A stretch of DNA of 32,438 nt from a virus (lineage: Duplodnaviria > Heunggongvirae > Uroviricota > Caudoviricetes). This document shows, one piece after another, positions 1-31,299 of the stretch. The notes beneath the pieces were generated by a model. The model was given only the letters and a program-made list of their open reading frames with translations, was not told the DNA's origin and ran no database searches. The stretch lies in the IMG/VR virus record IMGVR_UViG_2534681773_000029; one strand, given 5' to 3'. Both the position numbers and the translations under genes were made by a program. The number at the start of each line of letters is the position of its first letter. Position 1 is the first letter of the stretch.

Positions 1-981
1 TTATAACGTCACTCCGCCTTTTAGTGGATTCAGAGCGACGGCATTTTGCAGATAGTCAGGCGCAAGGTGCGCATAGGCCATCGTCTGCTGAATGCTCGCA
101 TGTCCCAGAATCTGTTGCAGTGCGATTATATTGCCCCCATTCATCATGAAATGGCTTGCGAATGTATGCCGCAGGATGTGGGTTGCCTGATTGGGTGGTA
201 TATCAGGTTTCACTCTGCGTAAAATCCCGCAAAATTTCTCATAATCAACTTTGAATAATTTGGCGCTGGCCTCCTCTTTAACTTTTTTCTCCAGTTCCTC
301 AGAAATCGGCACGGTTCGCTTTTTACCGTTTTTGGTTTTCAGGAAGGTAACCCTGCAATTTGTAATCTGTGCTGGTTTTAGCGTGGCAACTTCCGTCCAT
401 CTTCCTCCGGTGCTCAGACATAAAAGCGCGACAAGTAAGTCATCACCAGCCAAAACATTTAACAGTTTTTCGATTTCTGCTTTTTCCAGGAACGTCATTT
501 CAGGGTTGGCCTCCGCCAGTGGCGGCAGTCCGTGAATTGGGTGTTGCCCGGAAAATTCATCCAATTGAATTAATTTTGTGAACATGCCGGATAATCGGTA
601 CATGTCACGGTTTATCGTTGCGGCACTGATACCATCACGTAGTCGCATGGAACGATAATCCATCAAAGCCCTTTTGCTCATCCTGCTCACTGGTATATCA
701 CCTATGCCGCTGATGGTTTTGAGTAGATGATTAAACTCTTTTGTTCCATGCTCGTGGTTTTGCCCGTGATATTTCCACCAGATGTCCAGCAACTCACTCA
801 AAGTCCGGCGGTCTGCTCGCTGGCCTCCCCATTCTTTCTGACTGGCATTGGCGATTGTGTATCGCTCAAATGCTAGTGCTTCAGCTTTTCTTTCGAATTT
901 CCTGCGGATGCGTTTTCCGTCGCGACCGCGAGGTCTAATGTCCACTTCATAGCGACCATCATCGAGCTTCTTAATTGCCAT
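1..981 (-). CDS. int: Tyrosine integrase, P2 Int family
   Basis: ORF 1..1011 on minus strand; C-terminal catalytic signature (THILRHTFASHF with HxxR, and MAYAHL tyrosine). Preferred start is the ATG at 981 (MAIKKLDDGRYE) preceded by GGAGGG; the ATG at 1011 has no SD. Stop codon is at window positions 1-3. Confidence 0.9.
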   Translation of the reverse strand: MAIKKLDDGRYEVDIRPRGRDGKRIRRKFERKAEALAFERYTIANASQKEWGGQRADRRTLSELLDIWWKYHGQNHEHGTKEFNHLLKTISGIGDIPVSRMSKRALMDYRSMRLRDGISAATINRDMYRLSGMFTKLIQLDEFSGQHPIHGLPPLAEANPEMTFLEKAEIEKLLNVLAGDDLLVALLCLSTGGRWTEVATLKPAQITNCRVTFLKTKNGKKRTVPISEELEKKVKEEASAKLFKVDYEKFCGILRRVKPDIPPNQATHILRHTFASHFMMNGGNIIALQQILGHASIQQTMAYAHLAPDYLQNAVALNPLKGGVTL

Positions 982-1050
982 AAGAAAGCCCTCCGGCGCT
1001 GTATTCACCATCTTGGTAGCAAATGGTGAAAATGTAATCTTTATATAGAG

Positions 1051-5775: not shown

Positions 5776-5992
5776 GTAAAAATACAGCGTGATTTTATAT
5801 GTCTTTGAATGGATTATGCGAAGCACCTCTAAGGTAGATGAGGAGCAATAGCGTGTTGAATCAGAAGGCTAAATTGTATTGAATCGTTAGCATGTAATTG
5901 AAGGCAGCTATTTGATTCGAGTCATAAAAGAGCATCTATTTCGGTTAATAAAACCATTGCGAGTGACTTTATGTCGAAGCATAATTCATCTC

Positions 5993-6006
5993 GAGCGAAG
6001 TCTTGC
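5993..6006. repeat. 14-bp direct repeat GAGCGAAGTCTTGC, copy 1
   Basis: Exact match to 6257-6270; copy 1 sits just after a TTGCGA-N17-CATAAT promoter-like element (5957-5985). Confidence 0.7.
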
Positions 6007-6034
6007 TAGTCTTTCATCGGATTGATGACGGGCG

Positions 6035-6066
6035 CAAAAAAACCACCCTGGCAGGTGGTTTTTTTG
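6035..6066. terminator. Bidirectional intrinsic terminator (A-run, ACCACC-loop-GGTGGT hairpin, T7 run)
   Basis: aaaaaaaccaccctggcaggtggttttttt read directly; works on both strands. Confidence 0.6.
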
Positions 6067-6077
6067 TTTGAAGCATA

Positions 6078-6191
6078 CTAAAGAAAAATACTTACATGGA
6101 TATTACTGACGTTTACTGACAAACCACTCGGACTACCATATGGATAGCCAAAGAGGGCCAGAACGAGAATGCAGTAATAGCACTTCTTCAT
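6078..6191 (-). CDS. Candidate 37-aa hydrophobic peptide (MKKCYYCILVLALFGYPYGSPSGLSVNVSNIHVSIFL); possible type I toxin-like or small membrane protein
   Basis: ATG at 6191 preceded by AGGAGG; ends 12 nt before the terminator at 6035-6066; below the ORF-track length cutoff so hand-translated. Not a recognised family. Confidence 0.35.
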   Translation of the reverse strand: MKKCYYCILVLALFGYPYGSPSGLSVNVSNIHVSIFL

Positions 6192-6256
6192 ATCGCCTCC
6201 TGTAAGCAGAGGGCAATTTCCGCCGATATATGCGCTTCTAAGGCGGAGTGACTATT

Positions 6257-6270
6257 GAGCGAAGTCTTGC
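6257..6270. repeat. 14-bp direct repeat GAGCGAAGTCTTGC, copy 2 (in predicted 5' UTR of the small-peptide mRNA)
   Basis: Exact copy of 5993-6006; lies about 66 nt upstream of the peptide start on the minus strand. Confidence 0.7.
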
Positions 6271-6847
6271 CCTGAAATAATGCTCTGTTTAAACGCAAAG
6301 TGATCTGGCATATCACCGAACAGAGGACCTGAACAACACAACATATAGTATGTCGTTGTTTCTGGTTGCATTTTATGTTGTGTAATACTGGTTTTGCATC
6401 AAGGATGTTTGAGCTTTTTTTGATATAGCTCAAAGTAAAAAGCAGAGACTACGGATGATAAGGTCTTGAAAGCAATGTAAATTTTTTAAAGTTGTGAGTG
6501 GCTAGAAATGCACAGTTTCAATATGGCGGATTTAAACAAGTAATTAAAAATAGCGACATAAATTCCAATAAAATCATTAGGTTGCGTTTTCTGTGGAAAC
6601 TTCGGTGACTCTGAAATTTTCTTTTAGTGTCGCTGAGGTTTAACAACTCGCTGCGCAAGTAGTTAGTGTTTTTTTAACTCAATATTCTGATTTATAAGGT
6701 TTTTTATAAATCGTGGGCTGGTTGCGCGTATTCATCTCGTGTTATCAGCAAAGATAAGCTCTATATGCAGAACTGAATGCATATATGATGTCGAAAATGT
6801 TATGGGAAAACGTGGATTAGTGTTATAGTAATGGCTGAAAAACAGCC

Positions 6848-6876
6848 TTGACATAAAATAACAACTGTGATATGGC
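6848..6876 (+). promoter_or_regulatory. Possible promoter for the peptidase gene (TTGACA -35 at 6848-6853; weak -10 TATGGC after 17-nt spacer)
   Basis: Perfect -35 hexamer but poor -10; low confidence. Confidence 0.25.
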
Positions 6877-6912
6877 TGTGCATACTTAACTTTTTTAACG
6901 TAGGAGGCAACC

Positions 6913-7398
6913 ATGAGCTATGCAGCTAAAAAACTGCTTGACCGCTATTGGGATCGCCGACTACCTGTCGATCCGTTTAAGCTTGCTAAAGCGTGGGGTG
7001 CTCGTGTTGAAGCACTTGAGGAATCGGCTTATAACAACGATGGGTTAAGCGGTCTGGCTGTCATCAAAAAGGGTGTCCATAGGATTTATTTTGATTCTAG
7101 TGAACATTCTAATCGTCAACGTTTTACTGTTGCACACGAGTTAGGTCATCATGTGCTGGGGCATACCCAGGACGGAGAGTACCATCGGGATAATGTCGGG
7201 AATTATTCAACAGGTGCTCGTGATTATCGTGAGGTTGAAGCAAACAAGTTTGCTGCTGAGTTGTTAATGCCTGAGTCTGCTATACGTCAATTGGTATCCA
7301 GAGAAGGTATTGATAGCACTTTGAGATTAGCAAGCATCTTTAATGTATCAGAAGCCGCTATGCATTGGCGCTTAAAGAGCTTAGGAATGGCTTATTAA
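6913..7398 (+). CDS. ImmA/IrrE-family (M78-like) Zn metallopeptidase
   Basis: 161-aa ORF with AGGAGG SD; HEXXH motif (AHELGHHVLGH) and downstream EVEANKFAAELLMPE, the signature of ImmA/IrrE peptidases. No HTH partner gene adjacent. Confidence 0.8.
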   Translation: MSYAAKKLLDRYWDRRLPVDPFKLAKAWGARVEALEESAYNNDGLSGLAVIKKGVHRIYFDSSEHSNRQRFTVAHELGHHVLGHTQDGEYHRDNVGNYSTGARDYREVEANKFAAELLMPESAIRQLVSREGIDSTLRLASIFNVSEAAMHWRLKSLGMAY

Positions 7399-7423
7399 TT
7401 AGCCTTTAACTTTTAACCTGTTT

Positions 7424-7464
7424 AAAATCACCTTTACGTTTGTACATGTAAGGGTGATTTTTTT
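7424..7464 (+). terminator. Intrinsic terminator or attenuator downstream of peptidase gene
   Basis: Hairpin ATCACCTTTA / TAAGGGTGAT followed by T7, ending immediately before the ATG at 7465. Confidence 0.5.
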
Positions 7465-8064
7465 ATGGCTGATATTGATTTATCTGGACAGTCCCCAGAG
7501 CAAGGAACCACTCCTAAGGGCGATTTAGATCCTGATATCCTTATAAGGCGAGATAGACGGGATGGTATAGAGCGTAGAAGTATGCGATTAGTGCTCTCTG
7601 CCGTTGTGCTTTGTTTTGCTTGTACATTTCTATGGCAGGGGCTTAACTTTGCTTTGGCTGTTGGAAATGGCTTGCTGGAAGCGAAAAGCAGTATTGCCGC
7701 AGCGATAACACAAAAAGTAGATACACAAACTTGTGTTTCAGCAGAAAAATGTTCTGCTTTATCTTCGGATCCGAAGATGGCTGATGAGAGGATAACACCA
7801 TCTTCAGACACTAATAAAGTTAGAAAATCTATTTCTGGTTTATCCACCGATTGGTTATCGGCCAGTTCTCTAATAGCTATTGTTGCATTCATCCTTGGTG
7901 TGGGTTTAACTTTGCTTTTGACTCTTCTTAAATCAGCATTTCAACACCCGACAGATAAAGACTTTAGAACAAAGTCGACATCTAATACTATTGAGTTGGC
8001 CACGCCAATCAGTGAATTAATAATTGGTGTTCTGAATATAATTAAAGACAAACTATCTAAGTAA
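7465..8064 (+). CDS. Predicted membrane protein with two hydrophobic helices, unknown function
   Basis: 199-aa ORF; hydrophobic stretches RLVLSAVVLCFACTFLWQGLNFALAV and SSLIAIVAFILGVGLTLLLTLL; improbably long open frame for AT-rich DNA. Start uncertain: no good SD at 7465, internal Met at 7582. A minus-strand ORF 7434..7892 overlaps it. Confidence 0.4.
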   Translation: MADIDLSGQSPEQGTTPKGDLDPDILIRRDRRDGIERRSMRLVLSAVVLCFACTFLWQGLNFALAVGNGLLEAKSSIAAAITQKVDTQTCVSAEKCSALSSDPKMADERITPSSDTNKVRKSISGLSTDWLSASSLIAIVAFILGVGLTLLLTLLKSAFQHPTDKDFRTKSTSNTIELATPISELIIGVLNIIKDKLSK

Positions 8065-8106
8065 AGCATTAGTTGTGATTTTTTATTGGTTTTAGTGATA
8101 ATACAT

Positions 8107-8140
8107 CTCCAGTACTTATTGTTACTGGAGAGTATTTTTA
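8107..8140. terminator. Hairpin (CTCCAGTA / TACTGGAG) with T-rich tail between convergent genes
   Basis: Perfect 8-bp inverted repeat with 8-nt loop, followed by AGTATTTTTA. Confidence 0.4.
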
Positions 8141-8247
8141 GTCGTTTTATATTTTTAATGTTAGTGAATGATATTCACGAGAGTTCACGTTCGATGTGAT
8201 GTAATCGGGGGCGTTAACACCAAGAATCGCAACGAGTAATCGGCAAA

Positions 8248-9087
8248 TTAAAGCCTGCATTTGTTGTAATATGTCATCTCCATATTGATAATTGTTAATA
8301 GTGGTAAAGCCAAGTGGTTGACCATGAAACATAGCTTCATGAAAGTTTTCATTGCGGATGTTTGTAATGTTTTTTTGCCTGTAACCCATGATGGTCGTGG
8401 TATTCCATAAGTTTTGCAGATCCACTTCAAGCGCCTGGAGTGATTTAGAGTCTTTTCTGTACACTTGTTCTTTTCTGCCCATGTTAAAGCAAAGCAACTA
8501 TCCAGTGCCATATAAAGATACTGGAATTTTTCGAAGCTAAGGTATTGTGGGTTTTGGGATAAAAATAGTGCATGCACTATTGCTGCTATATTTATTGGTG
8601 CGTGTTTGGTTTTTGTCTCGCTAGACATGTATTTGAGTGCTAATTCTATAACCTCTTTTTCAGAGCACTTGACCAGAATAAAGTCAGTTAATTTGCTGGG
8701 TTTTATTGGGGTTGCGTCTAAAAAACCGGCATCAGTAGTTGTTAATCTTATCCCTTTGAAAAAAGACAGACACCACACAGCAAAATTGAGAGTTTCTAGT
8801 GAAGATGTATTTTTTAATTTTAGTGAGTGTGTTTTGGGTAAGCCAAATACTCGTTGGCTAAAAGGCATTGTGGATATGCCTCCATTGAGGTTATATACTT
8901 CTTGGTTTCCTGGGTATATCCAACCGTTAATAACATTTCTGTGATTGTTTATAAGATTTGTTTTTTCCGCTAGACCGGGTAAAGTAAGTAAAGAAAAATC
9001 ATCAGTTTCAACGTTAACTTCTACTGGATAGTATCCAAACTCAGCTTCAATATCATTGGATTGCTGTTCGTCAACTTTACCTTGCAT
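8248..9087 (-). CDS. Hypothetical protein of unknown family in cargo island; possibly frameshifted (see overlapping ORF 8147..8497)
   Basis: 279-aa minus-strand ORF; a second open frame continues to 8147. One extra A in the A7 run (plus-strand T7 at 8370-8376) would fuse them into about 313 aa. No recognisable catalytic motif. Confidence 0.45.
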   Translation of the reverse strand: MQGKVDEQQSNDIEAEFGYYPVEVNVETDDFSLLTLPGLAEKTNLINNHRNVINGWIYPGNQEVYNLNGGISTMPFSQRVFGLPKTHSLKLKNTSSLETLNFAVWCLSFFKGIRLTTTDAGFLDATPIKPSKLTDFILVKCSEKEVIELALKYMSSETKTKHAPINIAAIVHALFLSQNPQYLSFEKFQYLYMALDSCFALTWAEKNKCTEKTLNHSRRLKWICKTYGIPRPSWVTGKKTLQTSAMKTFMKLCFMVNHLALPLLTIINMEMTYYNKCRL

Positions 9088-9324
9088 ACATTGCTCCGGT
9101 CAAAAATAGGCTCGATAATTCTCGTAAGCCTATCATGTTCGCAAAGTATCCATACCTGTGGATTTTGTAAATTTAAGTTGATTTGTCATTAAATAAGCCG
9201 TTGCATGCAACAAGTGAATGTTTTTGCATGCGTCGGGGATGTCCGTTCAGGCTGCGTGCGGTCAGGACTGGTGCGGATCCATAGTATCTATGCAACTGCA
9301 TTAAAACCGCCCCATGAAGCGGGC

Positions 9325-9343
9325 GGGCGAGGCGGGGAAAGCA
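9325..9343. other. cos: cos site (19-nt cohesive-end sequence GGCGAGGCGGGGAAAGCAC)
   Basis: Exact match to the P2/P4 cohesive-end sequence as I recall it; lies in the expected place upstream of Q. Confidence 0.7.
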
Positions 9344-9486
9344 CTGCGCGCTGGCGGTGGTGCTGATTTTATTTTTTCAGCGTCTGAGCGCGTCGTGATG
9401 GCGTTTAGATTGTTCGCCGGGGCGTTGGTGTGTCTGCGGGCTGTTTTGTGCGGTGGTGAGCGTGTGAGGGCGTGATGGCGGGTTGT

Positions 9487-9508
9487 AAAAAAGCCGCCCG
9501 CAGGCGGC
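9487..9508 (-). terminator. Intrinsic terminator after Q (minus strand)
   Basis: GCCGCC-CGCA-GGCGGC hairpin with T6 on the minus strand, 6 nt past the Q stop. Confidence 0.5.
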
Positions 9509-9513
9509 GATGT

Positions 9514-10503
9514 TCAGCCGTTGTCAGTGTCCAGTGAGTAGTTTTTAAAGCGGATGACCTCCTGACCGAGCCAGCCGTTTATTTCCCGAATCCTGTCCTG
9601 TAACGGGATTAGCTCATTGCGGACAAAGACCTTTGCCACTTTCTCAATATCGCCCAGTGACCCGACGTTCTCCGGCTTGCCACCCATCAACTGAAAGGGG
9701 ATGCGGTGTGCGTCCAGCAGGTCAGCGGCGCTGGCTTTTTTGATATTAAAAAAATCGTCCTTCGTCGCCACTTCACTGAGCGGGATAATTTTAATGCCGT
9801 CGGCTTTCCCCTGCGGGGCATAGAGAAACAGGTTTTTAAAGTTGTTGCGGCCTTTCGACTTCACCATGTTTTCGCGAAGCATTTCGATATCGTTGCGATC
9901 CTGCACGGCATCGGTAACGTACATGATGTATCCGGCATGTGCGCCGTTTTCGTAATACTTGCGGCGGAACAGCGTGGCCGACTCATTCAGCCAGGCAGAG
10001 TTAAGGGCGCTGAGATATTCCGGCAGGCCATACAGCTCCTGATTAATATCCGGCTCCAGCAGGTGAAACACGGAGCCGGGCGTGAAAGGTGTCGGCTCGT
10101 TGAAGGACGGCACCCACCAGTAAACATCCTCCTCCACGCCACGACGGGTATATTTGGCCGGTGAGGTTTCCAGTCTGATGACCTTACCGGTGGTGCTGTA
10201 ACGCTTTTCCAGAAACGCATTACCGAACACCAGAAAATCCAGCACAAAGCGGCTGAAATCCTGCTGGGAAAGCCACGGGTGCGGGATAAACGTTGAGGCC
10301 AGAATATTACGTTTGACGTAAATCGGTGAGCTGTGATGCACGGCAGCACGCAGGCTTTTTGCCAGACCGGTAAAGCTGACCGGTGGCTCATACCATCTGC
10401 CGTTACTGATGCATTCGACGTAATCCAGAATGTCACGGCGGTCGAGTACCGGCACCGGCTCGCCAAAGGTGAATGCCTCCATTTTCGGGGCGCTGGCGGT
10501 CAT
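9514..10503 (-). CDS. Q: Portal protein gpQ
   Basis: 329-aa ORF matching P2 Q. A 15-codon ORF (10500..10547) starts at an ATG overlapping the P stop and would join in frame with one extra homopolymer base, giving 344 aa. Confidence 0.85.
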   Translation of the reverse strand: MTASAPKMEAFTFGEPVPVLDRRDILDYVECISNGRWYEPPVSFTGLAKSLRAAVHHSSPIYVKRNILASTFIPHPWLSQQDFSRFVLDFLVFGNAFLEKRYSTTGKVIRLETSPAKYTRRGVEEDVYWWVPSFNEPTPFTPGSVFHLLEPDINQELYGLPEYLSALNSAWLNESATLFRRKYYENGAHAGYIMYVTDAVQDRNDIEMLRENMVKSKGRNNFKNLFLYAPQGKADGIKIIPLSEVATKDDFFNIKKASAADLLDAHRIPFQLMGGKPENVGSLGDIEKVAKVFVRNELIPLQDRIREINGWLGQEVIRFKNYSLDTDNG

Positions 10504-10546
10504 TGTTTTTGCCGCTGGTCGCGGTGTTTTCCCTTTTTCTTGCTCA

Positions 10547-12319
10547 TCAGTAAAACTCCAGAATGGTGGATGTCAGCGGGGTGCTGATACCCGCGGTGAG
10601 TGGCTCATTTAACAGGGCATGCATGGTCGCCCAGGCGAGGTCGGCGTGGCTGGCTTCCTCGCTGCGGCTGGCCTCATAGGTGGCGCTGCGTCCGCTGCTG
10701 GTCATGGTCTTGCGGATAGCCATAAACGAGCTGGTGATGTCGGTGGCGCTGACGTCATATTCCAGACAGCCACGGCGAATAACGTCTTTTGCCTTGAGCA
10801 CCATTGCGGTTTTCATTTCCGGCGTGTAGCGGATATCGCGCGCGGCGGGATAGAACGAGCGCACGAGCTGGAACACGCCGACACCGAGGCCGGTGGCATC
10901 AATTCCGATGTATTCGACGTTGTATTTTTCGGTGAGTTTGCGGATGGATTCAGCCTGAGTGGCAAAGTCCATGCCTTTCCACTGGTGACGCTCAAGTATT
11001 CTGAATTTGCCACCGGCCACCACCGGCGGTGCCAGCACCACGCATCCGGCACTGTCGCCACGGTGTGACGGGTCGTAACCAATCCATACCGGGCGGGAGC
11101 CGAACGGATTCGCGGCAAACGGCGCATAGTCTTCCCATTCTTCCAGCGTGTCGACCATGCAGCGTTGCAGCTCCTCGAACGGGAACACCGACGCCTTGTC
11201 GTCAACAAATTCACACATGAACAGGTTTTTAAAATCGTCGGCGCTGTTTTCACGTTTGAGCTGCTCAATGTCGAACAGCGTGCAGCCGCCTTTCAGCGCG
11301 TCCTCAATGGTGACAATCTGCCGCCACTGGCCGTCCGCACAGAGAAGACCTCCGGCAAGGGCGTTATGACTGACGTCGATTTCCACGCGTTCGGCGGCGC
11401 TGGCGCGACCCCGGTTGAACAGTTCACCCGACCAGAACGGGTAGGCGTCGTGCGCCAGCGTGGACGGGGTGGAGAAATAGGTCGAGCGCAGGTGACTCTG
11501 TGAGGCCATACCTGATGCCACCTTACGCAGTACCTGAAAATTCGGGATCCAGAAAATCTCATCGACGTACAGGTCGCCGTTATGGCTCTGCGCGGTGTTG
11601 GAGTTGGTGCCGAGAAAAATCAGTTTTGCGCCGTTATTGCCCAGGACAATCGGGTCACCGGTCAGGTCAACGTCAACCAGCCGGGCAAAGGCGATGATGT
11701 ATTCGCGGAACACATACGCCTGCGTTTTACTGGCCGACAGAAAAATCTGGTTATGACCGGTTTTCAGGGCGCGCAGCAGCGCCTCGCGGGAAAAATAAAA
11801 CGTCGCGCCAATCTGGCGGGATTTCAGGATATCGCGGATGCGGTGCTCAAGCCCGGCGCGATACCAGTGCAACTGATATTCGAAAGACTGCTCAAAGAAA
11901 ATCTGCTCCAGCTTTTCGATGGCCTCGTCACTGAAAAAATTCTTTTTCGGTTTGCGACGCCCGCCCTTGTTGCGGTTAGCGACGTTCGGATTAAGGTCTG
12001 CCTCGTTGCCGGTCTGACTGTAACGGTTGACCCGTGCCAGTCGTTCAATCTGGCGTCCGAGCAGGTCAATTTCCTTGAAGTCACCGCCGGTTTTCTGCGG
12101 TTTGATGATGAGCTGGGTCAGCCTCGCTTCCAGACTCATTTCGACACGGCTGATGGGGGCAACGCTGTCCCAGCCGTCGCGCTGTTTCCAGCTCTGCACC
12201 GTCGGGCGTTTCATCTGCAACATGGCGGCAATCTGCGGCACGGAAAACCCCTGCCAGTACAGCAGCGCCGCCTGACGACGCGGATCGTGTAAAAGAGTGG
12301 TGTCTGTGGTGATGGTCAT
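10547..12319 (-). CDS. P: Terminase large subunit (ATPase) gpP
   Basis: ORF 10547..12349; ATG at 12319 (MTITTDTTLLHD) with GAGG SD gives 590 aa, the P2 P length. Confidence 0.9.
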   Translation of the reverse strand: MTITTDTTLLHDPRRQAALLYWQGFSVPQIAAMLQMKRPTVQSWKQRDGWDSVAPISRVEMSLEARLTQLIIKPQKTGGDFKEIDLLGRQIERLARVNRYSQTGNEADLNPNVANRNKGGRRKPKKNFFSDEAIEKLEQIFFEQSFEYQLHWYRAGLEHRIRDILKSRQIGATFYFSREALLRALKTGHNQIFLSASKTQAYVFREYIIAFARLVDVDLTGDPIVLGNNGAKLIFLGTNSNTAQSHNGDLYVDEIFWIPNFQVLRKVASGMASQSHLRSTYFSTPSTLAHDAYPFWSGELFNRGRASAAERVEIDVSHNALAGGLLCADGQWRQIVTIEDALKGGCTLFDIEQLKRENSADDFKNLFMCEFVDDKASVFPFEELQRCMVDTLEEWEDYAPFAANPFGSRPVWIGYDPSHRGDSAGCVVLAPPVVAGGKFRILERHQWKGMDFATQAESIRKLTEKYNVEYIGIDATGLGVGVFQLVRSFYPAARDIRYTPEMKTAMVLKAKDVIRRGCLEYDVSATDITSSFMAIRKTMTSSGRSATYEASRSEEASHADLAWATMHALLNEPLTAGISTPLTSTILEFY

Positions 12320-12492
12320 GAATACCTCGCCGTGATGAATACACGGCAAGGCTACTGAGTCGCGCCCCGCGATTCGCTAAGGTGCTGTTGTGTCAGTGAT
12401 AAGCCATCCGGGACTGATGGCGGAGGATGCGCATCGTCGGGAAACTGATGCCGACATGTGACTCCTCTAATCACTATTCAGGACTCCTGACA

Positions 12493-20652: not shown

Positions 20653-21256
20653 TTCGCGACTGCTGCCAACCGGCTCATCACCGCTTGAAGTTGCCGCCGC
20701 AAAAGCCTGTGCGGAAATTGAAAAAACACCGGTCAGTATTCGTGAGCTGTGGAACCCGGACACCTGCCCGGCAAATCTGCTGCCGTGGCTGGCGTGGTCA
20801 TTTTCGGTTGACCGCTGGGATGATAAGTGGCCGGAAGCGACAAAACGCGCTGTTATCCGCGATGCGTATTTCATTCACTGCCATAAGGGCACTATAGGCG
20901 CAATCCGGCGTGTGGTGGAGCCGCTCGGCTATCTGATTGAGGTGAGGGAGTGGTGGCAGCTCAACGAGGAGCCGGGGACGTTCCGCATCGTTGTTGGCGT
21001 GCTTGAGCAGGGTATTACCGAGGAAATGTATCAGGAGCTGGAGCGTCTCGTTGCTGATGCAAAACCGGCAAGCCGCCATCTGACGGGACTGGCTATCAGT
21101 TTAAGTACAACCGGCAACATTTTTGCCGGTGCGGGATGCTATCACGGTGACGCCCTGACGGTTTATCCCTACACCCCGGAGGCCATTATTGTCGGAGGGG
21201 ATTATTTCCCAGCCTCGGCCATTCATTTAATTGATAACCTGAGAGTAAACGCATGA
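20645..21256 (+). CDS. I: Baseplate protein gpI
   Basis: 203-aa ORF with GGGAGG SD, overlapping J stop and H start. Confidence 0.8.
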   Translation: MSDSRLLPTGSSPLEVAAAKACAEIEKTPVSIRELWNPDTCPANLLPWLAWSFSVDRWDDKWPEATKRAVIRDAYFIHCHKGTIGAIRRVVEPLGYLIEVREWWQLNEEPGTFRIVVGVLEQGITEEMYQELERLVADAKPASRHLTGLAISLSTTGNIFAGAGCYHGDALTVYPYTPEAIIVGGDYFPASAIHLIDNLRVNA

Positions 21257-22611
21257 CAGTGAAATACTACGCCATTCTGACTAATCAGGGCGCGGCACGG
21301 CTGGCTAACGCGACGATGCTCGGCAGTAAGCTGAATCTGACGCAAATGGCCGTTGGTGATGCGAATGGTGTCTTGCCGACACCAGACCCGGCACAGACAA
21401 AACTGATTAACCAGAAACGCATCGCGCCGCTGAATCTTCTGAGTGTTGACCCGAACAACCAGAGCCAGATTATTGCGGAGCAAATCATCCCTGAGAACGA
21501 GGGCGGATTCTGGATCCGTGAGATTGGGCTTTATGATGATGAAGGCGTACTCATTGCGGTGGCGAACTGCCCGGAAACGTACAAACCGCAGTTGCAGGAA
21601 GGCAGTGGTCGTACCCAGACTATCCGCATGATTCTGGTTGTCACGAATACCGAAGCTATTACGCTGAAAATCGACCCGTCGGTGGTACTGGCGACCCGTA
21701 AATACGTGGATGATGAAGTCCTGGAATTAAGGCTGTATGTGGATGACCAGATGAGAAAACACATTGCCGCACAGGACCCTCATACCCAGTATGCACAGAA
21801 ACATAATCCGACATTTACCGGAGAACCAAAAGCGCCGACGCCTGCCGCAGGAAATAACACCACGCGGATTGCGACCACTGAGTTTGTTCAGGCCGCTATT
21901 ACCGCTCTGATTAACGGCGCGCCAGCCACGCTGGACACACTGAAAGAAATTGCCGCAGCCATTAACAATGACCCGAAATTCAGCGCCACCATTAACAATG
22001 CGCTGTCAGGTAAGCAGCCACTGGATGAGACGCTAACTCATTTGAGTGGGAAGGATGTTGCCGGTCTTCTCGCATACCTTGGTTTGGGAGAAGGTGCTCC
22101 AGCTATTGGCGTTCCGTTCTTCTGGCCGTCCGCAGCAATGCCAGATACCGTAATCGATAGCTGGTCCAGCATGGTGTTTTTGAAGTTCAACGGCGCGAAA
22201 TTCTCTGCCACTGATTACCCTGTGCTGGCGAAAGTGTTTCCGGCGCTGGCATTACCTGACGCACGCGGTGATTTCATTCGTATCTGGGATGACGGGCGCG
22301 GGATTGATGTCGGACGTACCCTACTTTCAGGGCAATCACACACAATTATGGATCATGCACACAATATGGAATTGTGGACGGGGGACGGGCTTGCCGCAGG
22401 AAGTGCACGGGAAGGAGTAAACCCAGGAATACTGGCTACATATGGTGACGGGGGAATAGTTAAAACGGACGAACCCGGTCTTAGGGTGCCTTCCTCACTA
22501 CGAGCTCTTAGCTCGCGTAGTGTTAAACGTTATGGTGAAATTAGTGGAAATGTAGGTACAGAAACCCGTCCACGAAATATTGCATTTAACTTTCTGGTGA
22601 GGGCTAAATAA
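21253..22611 (+). CDS. H: Tail fibre protein gpH (constant N-terminal part plus the variable C-terminal cassette in its current orientation)
   Basis: 452-aa ORF; the crossover site at 22067-22092 lies in frame within it, separating constant and invertible parts. Confidence 0.85.
   Translation: MTVKYYAILTNQGAARLANATMLGSKLNLTQMAVGDANGVLPTPDPAQTKLINQKRIAPLNLLSVDPNNQSQIIAEQIIPENEGGFWIREIGLYDDEGVLIAVANCPETYKPQLQEGSGRTQTIRMILVVTNTEAITLKIDPSVVLATRKYVDDEVLELRLYVDDQMRKHIAAQDPHTQYAQKHNPTFTGEPKAPTPAAGNNTTRIATTEFVQAAITALINGAPATLDTLKEIAAAINNDPKFSATINNALSGKQPLDETLTHLSGKDVAGLLAYLGLGEGAPAIGVPFFWPSAAMPDTVIDSWSSMVFLKFNGAKFSATDYPVLAKVFPALALPDARGDFIRIWDDGRGIDVGRTLLSGQSHTIMDHAHNMELWTGDGLAAGSAREGVNPGILATYGDGGIVKTDEPGLRVPSSLRALSSRSVKRYGEISGNVGTETRPRNIAFNFLVRAK
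22067..22092. repeat. 26-bp invertase crossover site, left (TTCTCGCATACCTTGGTTTGGGAGAA), inside H
   Basis: Imperfect dyad; its right half is the reverse complement of the left half of the site at 23964-23989 (15-bp exact inverted repeat TTGGTTTGGGAGAAG). Confidence 0.75.
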
Positions 22612-23204
22612 TGAAACCTGTTTTTGATGAAAATGGGCTGGCTACAGTACCGGGTAATATGCGTTGTTTTTATTATGAGGCAGTTACGTATGAATATACT
22701 GGCTGGTCTGATGAATATATTAATACTGGCGTAAGTATGCCCGCCTGTTCCACTGGTATTGACCCGGGCGAATACATTCCGGGGAAAGTGGCAGTATTTA
22801 CGGGTAAGGGATGGAGCCATGAAGAAGACCACCGCAATGAGACTGTTTACTCAATCGAAAATGGCGCAGCTGTTACAGTGGATTATATCGGTGCCATCAA
22901 AGACGGTTATGTCACGCTTTCACCGTTAACGCCATACGATAAATGGGATGGTGAGAAATGGGTGACAGATACTGAGGCACAGCATAGTGCCGCAGTAGAC
23001 GCAGCAGAAGCACAGCGCCAGTCGCTGATTGATGCTGCAATGGCTTCCATCAGTCTGATTCAACTGAAATTACAGGCCGGACGGAAGCTGACGCAGGCAG
23101 AAACAACCCGACTTAACGCCGTGCTGGATTACATTGACGCGGTGACGGTAACAGATACCAGCACCGCGCCGGATGTCATCTGGCCTGAACTGCCGGAGGC
23201 GTAG
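22611..23204 (+). CDS. G: Tail fibre assembly protein gpG (cassette in expressed orientation)
   Basis: 197-aa ORF after H; C-terminal motif (DYIDAVTVTDTSTAPDVIWPELP) also present in the minus-strand G' copy. Confidence 0.8.
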   Translation: MKPVFDENGLATVPGNMRCFYYEAVTYEYTGWSDEYINTGVSMPACSTGIDPGEYIPGKVAVFTGKGWSHEEDHRNETVYSIENGAAVTVDYIGAIKDGYVTLSPLTPYDKWDGEKWVTDTEAQHSAAVDAAEAQRQSLIDAAMASISLIQLKLQAGRKLTQAETTRLNAVLDYIDAVTVTDTSTAPDVIWPELPEA

Positions 23205-23616
23205 GCCATTCAATATCTGGCGCACCGGAAGTATCGACCAGTTCCAGTGCGTCCAGATAATCCAGCCACAAATTATATTGCGCCAGTTCCTCACCTTTCA
23301 GGCGACCAATCGCCGCTTTACCAGGCCATTGCTTACTGTTTATGTATTCGTTGACCTGATTAATCAATTGCTGCTTTTCCAGTTCGGCTGCGGCAATTTG
23401 TTCCTCATGAGTTGGCGGTGGAATATCAATCCATGCAGGCATTCCGTCGATGACACCTCTGTATTTTCCTTCTGGTGCTTCCTTCATAAATTCGGCGGCA
23501 ACAGTGTCGTCAATTTCGATTCCATCATCGGGCCATTCGCCGGATTCCTGATAAGCGATTTTAAGCTCCACAGGGAAAAACGCATTTTTATCGGCGCTGA
23601 AAATATATTTCTGCAT
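23176..23616 (-). CDS. Alternative tail fibre assembly protein (G'), silent orientation
   Basis: 146-aa minus-strand ORF convergent with G, 3' ends overlapping; tail-fibre-chaperone-like C-terminus (DYLDALELVDTSGAPDIEWPTPP). Confidence 0.75.
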   Translation of the reverse strand: MQKYIFSADKNAFFPVELKIAYQESGEWPDDGIEIDDTVAAEFMKEAPEGKYRGVIDGMPAWIDIPPPTHEEQIAAAELEKQQLINQVNEYINSKQWPGKAAIGRLKGEELAQYNLWLDYLDALELVDTSGAPDIEWPTPPAVQAR

Positions 23617-23618
23617 TT

Positions 23619-23977
23619 CTACCGTCCTATCGAAATATAACTGAATCTGTATTGCTGTGAGATATCACTGGTTGCCACACGCCACGCTGAATTACTGATA
23701 TGTTCAAAATTTACAGACAAAACCTGCGGGGCAGGATTCGACGGGTCTGACTGAACGGCATCAGACATAACACTGACTGAAACCATCGGCTGATTAGGGA
23801 ATGGTATAGGGAAGTGTCCACTGATAAAGCGGGTCGAGTTTCCTGCAAAAGTGCCAAACTGAACAATATATCCACCTGGTAGCCTGAACCATCCCGAACC
23901 AGAAGCGAATGCTCCCATATCCGGTATCTGATTATCTCCTGTGCCCACATTCCGTTTTGCCGCTTCTCCCAAACCAA
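23619..23977 (-). CDS. Alternative tail fibre C-terminal cassette (Hc'), promoterless until inversion
   Basis: Minus-strand frame 23619..24017 shares the in-frame junction GLGE with H at the crossover site; would fuse to the constant H N-terminus after inversion. Confidence 0.7.
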
Positions 23978-23989
23978 CGTTTATGAAAA
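23964..23989. repeat. 26-bp invertase crossover site, right (TTCTCCCAAACCAACGTTTATGAAAA)
   Basis: Inverted relative to the 22067-22092 site; sits about 55 bp upstream of the invertase gene; hix/gix/cix-like dyad with central AA. Confidence 0.75.
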
Positions 23990-24044
23990 TGCAGAGATAA
24001 CGGGCAACTGGCATCATCTCCGGTTTTTATTCAGGGGGATGCTC

Positions 24045-24638
24045 ATGCTTATTGGCTATGTACGCGTGTCAACAAATGACCAGAACACGGAATTGCAGCG
24101 TAACGCGCTGGAGTGTGCAGGATGTGAGCTGATTTTTGAGGATAAAATCAGCGGCACGAAGTCCGACCGACCGGGACTGAAAAAACTGCTCAGAACATTA
24201 TCAGCAGGTGACACTCTGGTGGTCTGGAAGCTGGACAGGCTGGGGCGTAGTATGCGGCATCTGGTCATTCTGGTTGAGGAACTGCGCGAACGCGGCGTTA
24301 ATTTTCGCAGCCTGACGGATGCCATTGATACCAGCACGCCGATGGGACGTTTTTTCTTTCATGTGATGGGTGCCCTGGCTGAAATGGAACGAGAACTCAT
24401 TGTCGAGCGGACTCGCGCCGGACTGGAAGCGGCCAGAGCCAAAGGTCGTATTGGTGGCAGACGTCCGAAACTCACCGCGAGTGAGTGGGAGCAGGTCGGA
24501 CGGTTGCTGGCTCCGGGGGAATCTCGTCAACGCGTGGCACTGATTTTTGATATTGGCCTGTCCACGCTCTATAAAAAATTTCCCTCATCAGCGACAAAGA
24601 ATAAATTGTGTCATCCCTTAGCCAACCGGGACAAATAG
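24045..24638 (+). CDS. Serine DNA invertase, Gin/Hin/Cin/Pin family
   Basis: N-terminus MLIGYVRVSTNDQNTELQRNAL with catalytic serine context and C-terminal HTH region; start at 24045 preferred (GGGGG SD) over 24039. Confidence 0.9.
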   Translation: MLIGYVRVSTNDQNTELQRNALECAGCELIFEDKISGTKSDRPGLKKLLRTLSAGDTLVVWKLDRLGRSMRHLVILVEELRERGVNFRSLTDAIDTSTPMGRFFFHVMGALAEMERELIVERTRAGLEAARAKGRIGGRRPKLTASEWEQVGRLLAPGESRQRVALIFDIGLSTLYKKFPSSATKNKLCHPLANRDK

Positions 24639-24697
24639 CCTGACATCTCCGGCACAACTGAAAATATCACTCACCCATTAACCACGGAGTTAAACGG

Positions 24698-25888
24698 ATG
24701 AGTGACTATCATCACGGCGTGCAGGTGCTGGAGATTAACGACGGCACCCGCGTCATTTCCACCGTATCCACTGCCATTGTTGGCATGGTCTGCACGGCCA
24801 GCGATGCGGATGCGGAAACCTTCCCCCTCAATAAACCGGTGCTGATTACCAATGTGCAGAGCGCAATTGCAAAGGCCGGTAAAAAAGGCACGCTGGCGGC
24901 ATCGTTGCAGGCCATCGCCGACCAGTCAAAACCGGTCACCGTTGTCGTGCGTGTGGAAGATGGCACCGGTGACGACGAGGAAACGAAACTCGCGCAGACC
25001 GTTTCCAATATCATCGGCACCACCGACGAAAACGGTCAGTACACCGGACTGAAAGCCCTGCTGGCGGCGGAGTCGGTAACCGGTGTTAAACCGCGCATTC
25101 TCGGTGTGCCGGGACTGGACACCAAAGAGGTGGCTGTTGCACTGGCATCAGTCTGTCAGAAGCTGCGCGCTTTCGGGTATATCAGCGCATGGGGCTGTAA
25201 AACCATTTCCGAGGTGAAAGCCTACCGCCAGAATTTCAGCCAGCGTGAGCTGATGGTCATCTGGCCGGATTTCCTCGCATGGGATACGGTCACCAGTACC
25301 ACCGCCACCGCGTATGCCACCGCCCGTGCGCTGGGTCTGCGCGCTAAAATCGACCAGGAGCAGGGCTGGCATAAAACGCTGTCCAACGTTGGGGTGAACG
25401 GTGTTACCGGCATCAGCGCCTCTGTATTCTGGGATTTGCAGGAGTCCGGCACCGATGCTGACCTGCTTAACGAGTCAGGCGTCACAACGCTGATTCGCCG
25501 TGACGGTTTCCGCTTCTGGGGTAACCGTACCTGCTCTGATGACCCGCTGTTCCTCTTTGAAAACTACACCCGCACCGCGCAGGTGCTGGCCGATACGATG
25601 GCTGAGGCGCACATGTGGGCGGTGGACAAGCCCATCACCGCAACGCTGATTCGCGACATCGTTGACGGCATCAATGCCAAATTCCGTGAGCTGAAAACAA
25701 ACGGCTATATCGTGGATGCGACCTGCTGGTTCAGCGAAGAATCCAACGATGCGGAAACCCTTAAGGCCGGAAAACTGTATATCGACTACGACTATACCCC
25801 GGTGCCTCCTCTTGAAAACCTGACCCTGCGCCAGCGTATTACCGATAAATATCTGGCAAATCTGGTCACCTCGGTTAACAGCAATTAA
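24698..25888 (+). CDS. FI: Tail sheath protein gpFI
   Basis: 396-aa ORF, matches P2 FI length and position. Confidence 0.9.
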   Translation: MSDYHHGVQVLEINDGTRVISTVSTAIVGMVCTASDADAETFPLNKPVLITNVQSAIAKAGKKGTLAASLQAIADQSKPVTVVVRVEDGTGDDEETKLAQTVSNIIGTTDENGQYTGLKALLAAESVTGVKPRILGVPGLDTKEVAVALASVCQKLRAFGYISAWGCKTISEVKAYRQNFSQRELMVIWPDFLAWDTVTSTTATAYATARALGLRAKIDQEQGWHKTLSNVGVNGVTGISASVFWDLQESGTDADLLNESGVTTLIRRDGFRFWGNRTCSDDPLFLFENYTRTAQVLADTMAEAHMWAVDKPITATLIRDIVDGINAKFRELKTNGYIVDATCWFSEESNDAETLKAGKLYIDYDYTPVPPLENLTLRQRITDKYLANLVTSVNSN

Positions 25889-30999: not shown

Positions 31000-31080
31000 T
31001 ATGATTTGTTTATCCGTTTGTTTTATAAGGATAAATTAACTAAAATGGCATCATCAACAAAACCGGAAGAGGTGCTCGCG

Positions 31081-31299
31081 ATGTTTCATTGTCCTTTATG
31101 CCAGCATGCCGCACATGCGCGTACAAGTCGCTATATCACTGACACGACAAAAGAGCGTTATCACCAGTGCCAGAACGTGAATTGCAGCGCCACGTTCATC
31201 ACTTATGAGTCGGTACAGCGATACATCGTGAAGCCGGGAGAAGTCCACGCCGTGAGGCCGCACCCGTTGCCGTCAGGGCAGCAAATTATGTGGATGTGA
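31081..31299 (+). CDS. ogr: Late-gene transcriptional activator Ogr (zinc finger)
   Basis: ATG at 31081 (MFHCPLCQHAAHARTSRY...CQNVNC) with GAGG SD gives 72 aa, matching P2 Ogr; the track start at 31006 is an upstream extension. Confidence 0.9.
   Translation: MFHCPLCQHAAHARTSRYITDTTKERYHQCQNVNCSATFITYESVQRYIVKPGEVHAVRPHPLPSGQQIMWM

Follow-up and report, generated by a model that had tools for sequence, protein, structure and literature searches.

A Pin/Gin-type invertible tail-fibre segment in the tail operon of a P2-like prophage

Does the tail-fibre locus of the P2-like prophage held in IMG/VR record IMGVR_UViG_2534681773_000029 contain a DNA segment that inverts, exchanging one fibre tip for another? 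This record, a stretch of 32,438 nucleotides (nt) called the window in what follows and whose positions give all the coordinates, carries two fibre C-terminal cassettes on opposite strands, a pair of short inverted repeats and a recombinase gene, all located upstream of the tail sheath gene FI. An earlier note, made from the DNA letters, had interpreted the locus as a host-range switch of the Mu G-segment or P1 C-segment type. The analysis described here indicates that the locus is very probably a working Pin/Gin-type site-specific inversion switch of tail-fibre specificity in a P2-like (Peduovirus) prophage, standing in place of H-G-Z/fun.

Two fibre cassettes between two inverted sites

Over positions 21253-25888 the plus strand carries H, G, the recombinase gene and FI in that order, and the minus strand carries G' and Hc' in the interval from G to the recombinase gene (Table 1). 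Two 26-bp sites lie in inverted orientation around 1.9 kb of this DNA, and each consists of 12-bp half-sites flanking a TT core (12 + 2 + 12). When reverse-complemented, the right site reads TTTTCATAAACG-TT-GGTTTGGGAGAA. The left and right sites are alike at 21 of 26 positions; their inner half-sites and cores are identical and they share a 14-bp identical stretch. The half-sites fit TTNTCNNAAACC, and, with both sites read in one direction, each core is TT. Among the inverted repeats of the region, the pair 22067-22093 / 23963-23989 (27 nt, 81% complementary) ranks first and is the longest. A search with the DNA-invertase site consensus returned two matches in the 32.4-kb window, exactly the two sites, which fit the family consensus at 17 of the 18 specified positions; the same search found no match in any of 100 dinucleotide-preserving shuffles. 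These inverted-repeat, consensus and shuffle results agree with the earlier note, which had placed two inverted 26-bp sites about 1.9 kb apart.

The shape of the sites, with its 12-2-12 architecture, is that of gix of phage Mu and hixL of Salmonella. In addition, the e14 inverted repeat (Table S1 of Goldberg 2014, PMC4272514) contains 19 nt identical to window positions 22076-22094, and the core and the inner half-site are those of the e14 repeat. A third crossover site was not found in the window, where the next-best 26-mers mismatch at 6 of the 18 specified positions. The multi-site (Min/shufflon) variant of such systems was also considered and is ruled out for the window, which has just two sites.

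The N-terminus of H is a tail-collar fibre N-terminus (PF12571, E = 1.5e-62, Pfam) and is 42% identical to that of P2 H. To see what an inversion would produce, we flipped 22079-23977 in silico, an operation that leaves both sites unchanged. In the flipped form the first 280 residues of H, which end in AYLGLGE and are the reading common to both orientations, run in frame into Hc' to give an H' of 394 aa, versus 452 aa in the unflipped form, and G' begins two bases past the H' stop codon. The simulated inversion thus upholds the claim of the earlier note that both cassettes are in frame with the constant H N-terminus through a GLGE junction, just as the open reading frames and Pfam domains uphold its assignment of the H C-terminus and G to the plus strand and of Hc' and G' to the minus strand.

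Protein comparison detected no similarity between Hc and Hc', and the 35% identity between G and G' is confined to the C-terminal 80 aa. Because the cassettes are so different, the fibre tip would differ between the two states, and each tip would have a chaperone of its own. G and G' are convergent genes whose 3' ends overlap by 29 nt (23176-23204), and their similar C-terminal peptides (…LDYIDA… / …LDYLDA…) give rise to the inverted repeat I6. The locus as a whole has the composition of a host-range module of the Mu G, P1 C and e14 P type, that is, C-termini on opposite strands, cognate chaperones and an in-frame join to a constant N-terminus over one site. The switch anatomy proposed in the earlier note is therefore recovered in the site architecture and the in-frame fusions, as well as in the Mu-like geometry of the invertase gene described below.

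Table 1. Positions of the features of the tail-fibre locus in the window
Feature	Position	Strand	Evidence or remark
H, tail-fibre gene	21253-22611	+	452 aa in window orientation
Constant part of H	21253..22078	+	codons 1-275, as far as the crossover core
Left crossover site, within the H coding sequence	22067..22092		TTCTCGCATACC-TT-GGTTTGGGAGAA
Hc, expressed fibre C-terminal cassette	22081..22611	+	phrog_523 tail collar fibre, E = 5.6e-49
G, fibre assembly chaperone paired with Hc, 197 aa	22611..23204	+	PF02413 Caudo_TAP, E = 6.8e-27; phrog_105, E = 3.8e-83
G', alternative chaperone, 146 aa, silent in window orientation	23176..23616	-	PF02413, E = 1.2e-34; phrog_188
Hc', alternative fibre C-terminal cassette, silent in window orientation	23619..23975	-	PF21882 Gp53-like_C, E = 2.5e-9
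Right crossover site	23964..23989		TTCTCCCAAACC-AA-CGTTTATGAAAA; begins 81 nt before the invertase ATG
Pin/Gin-type serine DNA invertase, 197 aa	24045..24638	+	Resolvase, E = 3.2e-52, and HTH_7; phrog_125 DNA invertase, E = 3e-100
Recombinational (Fis) enhancer homologue	24063..24130		inside the invertase gene, gene nt 19-86; predicted to bind Fis
P2-type late promoter pF region ahead of FI	24601..24697	+	P2 annotation; 98% alignment from 24618
FI, tail sheath, right-hand neighbour of the slot	24698..25888	+	Phage_sheath_1, sheath_1C and Gp18_domIII_N domains

Both orientations in related genomes

All complete E. coli genomes were searched with the window form of the locus and with the simulated inverted form, and collinearity was scored over all 3448 bases. 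The window form is fully collinear in five genomes, with 97.8-98.0% identity, and the simulated inverted form is fully collinear in four, with 97.4-97.9% identity. Two copies in opposite states were also found within one genome (H37 and H61). E. coli CE0021a carries the flipped form, and its annotation includes a 1185-nt coding sequence, of the same length and position as the simulated H', followed by a 146-aa chaperone. The strand switches of CE0021a relative to the window fall at 22079-22093 and 23963-23980, which is inside the sites.

The place of the exchange can be seen more closely in two enterotoxigenic E. coli (ETEC) strains, B7A and 503025, which carry a related segment, about 93% identical to that of the window and not the same one. 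Over 9 kb these two loci are 99.95% identical, except that the 1.83 kb between the two sites is cleanly flipped. A single-nucleotide polymorphism in the inner half-site moves with the segment and the outer half-sites stay in place, which locates the exchange to positions 13-19 of the 26-mer, including the central TT. Natural flip pairs such as this one place the crossover without experiment. The B7A fibre gene is annotated as two pseudogene pieces, and the DNA upstream of its segment differs from that of 503025 by just two bases.

Inversion of a homologous locus has been documented in culture. In the P2 prophage of enteropathogenic E. coli (EPEC) E2348/69, mixed orientations of the locus at 2977580-2979467 were detected by polymerase chain reaction (PCR) in clonal cultures, with 93% in the forward orientation (Goldberg et al. 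2014, PMC4272514). The published inversion endpoints (PMC4272514 Table S1) coincide with the core dinucleotides of the sites homologous to those of the window. Inversion is thus evident among the relatives in the two orientations at 97.4-98.0% identity, in the ETEC flip pair and at the EPEC locus.

The arrangement of the sites was also compared among 58 IMG/VR loci that have an invertase 80-99% identical to that of the window and sufficient upstream DNA. Exactly two sites were found in 54 of them. The proximal site begins 80-81 nt before the ATG, a position it holds in every locus listed, and has an AA core, and the distal site lies 1.2-2.6 kb upstream with a TT core. Three sites are present in two of the 58 loci (L040 and L057; for example at -4173, -2228 and -80), which is the layout described, with its multiple states, from one EPEC P2 prophage.

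The invertase, its enhancer homologue and alternative explanations

The recombinase contains the domains PF00239 (Resolvase) and PF02796 (HTH_7) and is encoded just outside the segment, with 68 bp between its ATG and the right-site centre. The start codon is likely the ATG at 24045, as in the RefSeq annotation of homologues, rather than 24039. The protein matches the Gin crystal-structure sequence 3uj3 over its full length (E = 1e-93), and 4m6f likewise. Its identity is 84.8% to e14 PinE, 80% to the enzyme of the EPEC P2-like prophage (pairwise alignment), 78% to P7 Cin, 77% to Mu Gin and 65% to Hin. The earlier note had described a Gin/Hin-type serine invertase gene at this position, and both its location and its membership in the Gin/Cin/Pin/Hin group are confirmed; judging from these identities, the closest named relative is evidently e14 Pin with its P segment, rather than Gin or Hin.

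The catalytic residues S9 (nucleophile), R7, D64, R65 and R68 are retained, and are the same in Gin, Cin, Pin and Hin. In Hin, Q151, R154 and L155, together with the basic helix-B positions 47, 48 and 51, are specific to Fis-dependent invertases (McLean et al., PMC3798978). The window invertase retains the equivalents of these Fis contacts (Q150, R153 and L154) and of the basic helix B (K46, K47 and R50). Furthermore, H106 and M114 have their wild-type forms, at positions that are altered in hyperactive, Fis-independent invertase mutants. A PADLOC scan of the invertase for a defence-system role gave no match. Between the right site and the start of the invertase gene, outside the segment, there is a weak terminator-like hairpin with a T-run (24006-24025), which could stop read-through from the late operon whichever way the segment lies.

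The 5' part of the invertase gene, which the earlier note had suggested searching for a Fis-binding enhancer, contains a homologue of one. The 68-nt stretch at gene nt 19-86 occupies the positions annotated as enhancer in P7 cin and can be aligned to the enhancer region of Hin, and within it lie two predicted 15-bp Fis cores, at 24067-24081 (TGTCAACAAATGACC) and 24115-24129 (GTGCAGGATGTGAGC), which are 48 bp apart. The Hin and Gin enhancers have two Fis sites about 48 bp apart. In Hin, ATTTA and TAATG are located between the two Fis sites and the proximal Fis site is about 100 bp from hixL (PMC3798978); from this published position and the hixL distance we placed the Hin Fis cores at hin nt 26-40 and 74-88. 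The two cores of the window are identical to those of Mu gin at 14/15 and 14/15 positions, and to those of hin at 14/15 and 11/15. The distance from the site centre to the proximal Fis core is 97.5 bp in the window, 96.5 bp in Mu and 106.5 bp in Hin, and that from the site centre to the invertase ATG is 68, 67 and 74 bp, respectively, so both distances in the window are no more than 1 bp off those of Mu.

This good positional homology, together with the similarity in sequence, suggests that an enhancer is present and would bind Fis. Positional homology is not independent proof of an enhancer, since the same nucleotides code for the conserved catalytic N-terminus of the invertase and the tests at synonymous sites are weak; conservation at these sites is only weakly above background, so that homology, in position and in sequence, is the basis on which an enhancer is called. 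A relaxed Fis motif (GNNBRWWWWWYVNNC), whose threshold is passed by about 1% of all window positions, has its best matches further downstream, at 24138-24152 and 24175-24189 (gene nt 94-108 and 131-145), 37 bp apart. These were rejected as the enhancer because their positions differ from those of the enhancers of Hin and P7 cin. The match at 24175-24189 is kept in 98% of 65 related genes, and both matches may reflect chance or coding constraint.

The sites, the reading frames, the enzyme family with its key residues and the existence of both orientations in nature, with breakpoints in the sites, can be read directly from the records; the Fis dependence, the switching rate and the use of different receptors by the two fibres are what we infer for this prophage. 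Several observations weigh against a working switch. The single assembled sequence of the window has just one orientation, and a scan for sigma-70-like promoters that might drive the invertase gene found none in the stretch from the right site to the ATG. Dyad symmetry is poor in the outer half of the right site (8/12), though that half is kept across the family. For the enhancer, synonymous-codon diversity among 65 distinct invertase genes is lower in the 5' half of the gene without a sharp trough at the enhancer, and at third codon positions the window gene, gin and hin are not clearly more alike over it. The different receptors, for their part, are suggested by a single line of evidence, the lack of similarity between the fibre tips.

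The single orientation and the lack of a promoter-like site upstream of the invertase are also what would be seen if the anatomy were right and this prophage were fixed in the H(452)/G state, with an invertase that is unexpressed or subtly defective, and fibre-gene decay in some relatives, such as the pseudogene pieces of B7A H, fits the same picture. We consider such a frozen relic unlikely. The invertase reading frame is intact with all its key residues, the sites depart from the family consensus at one specified position, relatives about 98% identical occur in both orientations, and even the truncated EPEC remnant still flips. Invertases of this family act in trans, as known from complementation among Gin, Cin, Pin and Hin, and a co-resident invertase could flip the segment even then.

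The orientation differences themselves might instead come from RecA-dependent recombination between short inverted repeats or from assembly artefacts, given that the sites share the 14-bp identical stretch and that assemblers can collapse or flip repeats. However, 14 bp is far under the length of an efficient RecA substrate, and the breakpoints always fall at the same 26-bp sites beside an invertase gene in dozens of otherwise different loci. The inner half-sites move and the outer ones stay, as exchange at the core predicts, and mixed orientations of homologous loci were confirmed by PCR in clonal cultures (PMC4272514), which leaves this explanation a minute probability. It is just as hard to believe that the recombinase serves mainly another purpose, such as the resolution of genome multimers or the control of host genes, with fibre inversion incidental. 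The enzyme does belong to the resolvase/invertase superfamily, but the search of the window turned up only the two inverted sites and no res-like array of directly repeated ones; the Fis-contact residues specific to invertases are present, and the position of the invertase and its spacing to the segment are conserved in the 58 loci.

Under the preferred reading, that of a working inversion switch, the mechanism would follow that of the homologous Gin and Hin: dimers of the invertase would occupy the two 26-bp sites, which would form a synapse at a Fis-bound enhancer lying within the gene's first ~90 nt. Ser9 would then cut both sites at the central TT, one subunit pair would rotate by 180 degrees and the DNA would be religated. 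Such a flip would swap the cassette behind the constant 280-residue H N-terminus, so that the window orientation would produce H (452 aa) with G and the flipped orientation H' (394 aa, with a gp53-like tip) with G'. A lysogen population would consequently release particles with two receptor-binding tips.

P2 backbone, known switches and exchange of cassettes

The window contains a whole P2-like prophage, with an integrase (1-1011, minus strand), gpA, capsid and tail genes and Ogr (31006-31299). The first 25 kb have 98.2% identity over 97% of their length to Salmonella phage MET_P1_103_31, a Peduovirus, and P2-type phages cover 72-80% of the same DNA. The integrase, gpA, Ogr, gpI and sheath domains were all found, and by gene order and sequence homology the prophage belongs with the P2-like phages (Peduovirus). 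A host cation-efflux gene (Cation_efflux and ZT_dimer) extends from 31518 to the end of the window, and the right end of the prophage lies between ogr and that gene.

Homology to P2 (NC_001895) is 92.7% up to window position 21081, which aligns within the 3' part of gene I in P2, and is then lost as far as 24618. There, halfway through the activator (Ogr) binding site annotated for pF, the alignment takes up again, with 97.7% identity from pF onwards. In canonical P2 this interval holds a fixed H of 669 aa, a single G, the V-operon terminator and Z/fun on the minus strand, without an invertase or crossover sites. The earlier note was correct that Z/fun occupies the G-to-FI slot of canonical P2. 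P2 H, G, the V-operon terminator and Z/fun are thus replaced in the window by another H allele, the invertible segment and the invertase gene. The invertase gene ends inside the pF region, which takes in its last codons and its stop (24636-24638); only 59 bp separate the stop from the start of FI, and a TGT at 24607-24609 is in the register of the P2 half-site, with flanking sequence that differs.

Elsewhere in the prophage, a cargo block (5776-9500) is located between the replication gene A and the open reading frames at 9514-12349, which by P2 gene order are probably portal Q and terminase P; it corresponds to the slot of tin and old in P2. The block encodes an M78/ImmA-type peptidase at 6913-7398 (Pfam E = 3.8e-21; PADLOC capP E = 1e-30), phrog_8096 at 7465-8064 (plus strand) and phrog_5937 at 8248-9087 (minus strand), and is possibly an anti-phage or regulatory locus.

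Among the known systems, the e14 P segment, with the nearest invertase, PinE, has the same layout: stf-tfa on one strand, tfa-stf on the other and then the invertase gene, with a TT core in both. The cassettes of e14 and the window differ in part, and whereas e14 is a defective remnant (annotated as a cryptic prophage with several pseudogenes), the window module occupies the interval from I to FI of a complete P2-type tail operon. The P2-like locus of EPEC E2348/69 has the same order of site-Hc-G-G'-Hc'-site-invertase, with the invertase gene directly before FI and a right site one base off that of the window. That prophage, however, is a truncated remnant in which an integrase fragment abuts the left site, in contrast to the whole prophage of the window. 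A second EPEC locus has three repeats and four states, compared with two sites in the window.

In the Mu G segment, as in the window, a constant fibre N-terminus is joined at the left site to one of two C-termini, each followed by a chaperone, and gin, like the window invertase gene, is found beyond the right site, with transcription directed away from that site and an enhancer in the 5' end of the gene. The two systems differ in the core (TT in the window, GA/TC in gix), the length of the segment (1.9 kb in the window, ~3 kb in Mu) and the backbone (P2 and Mu). Comparison of the window cassettes with Mu S, S', U and U' revealed no significant similarity to S or S', and just a weak one between G' and U' (31% over 73 aa). 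In the C segment of P1/P7, whose Cin is the 78% identical enzyme mentioned above, the annotated enhancer is at the same gene positions, nt 19-86, but P7 cin lies on the other side and cixL overlaps its 3' end, a geometry of enhancer and site unlike that of the window. The Salmonella H segment, with Hin of the same family, also has a 26-bp site with an AA/TT core, and its enhancer, ~100 bp away from that site, lies at the 5' end of hin (PMC3798978); Hin, however, flips a promoter for flagellin phase variation, whereas the window segment swaps tail-fibre coding exons.

Modules of this kind are widespread. The region matches 124 phage records, many of which have annotations for a DNA invertase and for two genes of tail-fibre assembly, and some match is present in 3549 of the 5426 complete E. 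coli genomes. Cassettes recur in differing combinations and in both orientations among the related loci. In OQ383618, the nearest phage record, identity is about 97-98% on either side of the block 22095-22923 and drops to 20-70% over it. The left boundary of the block coincides exactly with the end of the left site and its right boundary lies within G; it corresponds to a cassette swap of Hc and the N-terminal two-thirds of the chaperone. The related module of E. coli B7A (L087) and E. coli 503025 (L088) is located in a prophage of different gene order, with a tail protein and a tape measure gene on the opposite strand right after the invertase gene.

Modular evolution of such regions was earlier proposed for P1 and p15B. 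A tentative extension, which we hold to be rather doubtful, is that the unit site-Hc-G-G'-Hc'-site-invertase is a portable module whose cassettes are traded between unrelated backbones at the crossover site, perhaps through invertase-catalysed recombination of co-resident prophages and not only through homologous recombination; the invertase could then also flip the segments of other prophages. This suggestion arises from the start of the OQ383618 block at the end of the left site, the recurrence of cassettes in differing combinations, the presence of the module in a differently organised ETEC prophage, and the core and inner half-site identical to those of e14.

The kind of module described here is already known, and it is common and documented in P2-like prophages, given that near-identical loci exist in public records and that the same P2-like arrangement was experimentally shown to invert. 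Its significance beyond correct annotation is accordingly small. In annotation, the silent gp53-like open reading frame and the second chaperone gene are to be described as the alternative exon set of H, and the 'recombinase family protein' as the invertase of the segment. The two cassettes offer users of P2-like phages or tailocins two receptor-binding modules that are ready to be swapped, and host-range prediction for this prophage should allow for two fibre tips.

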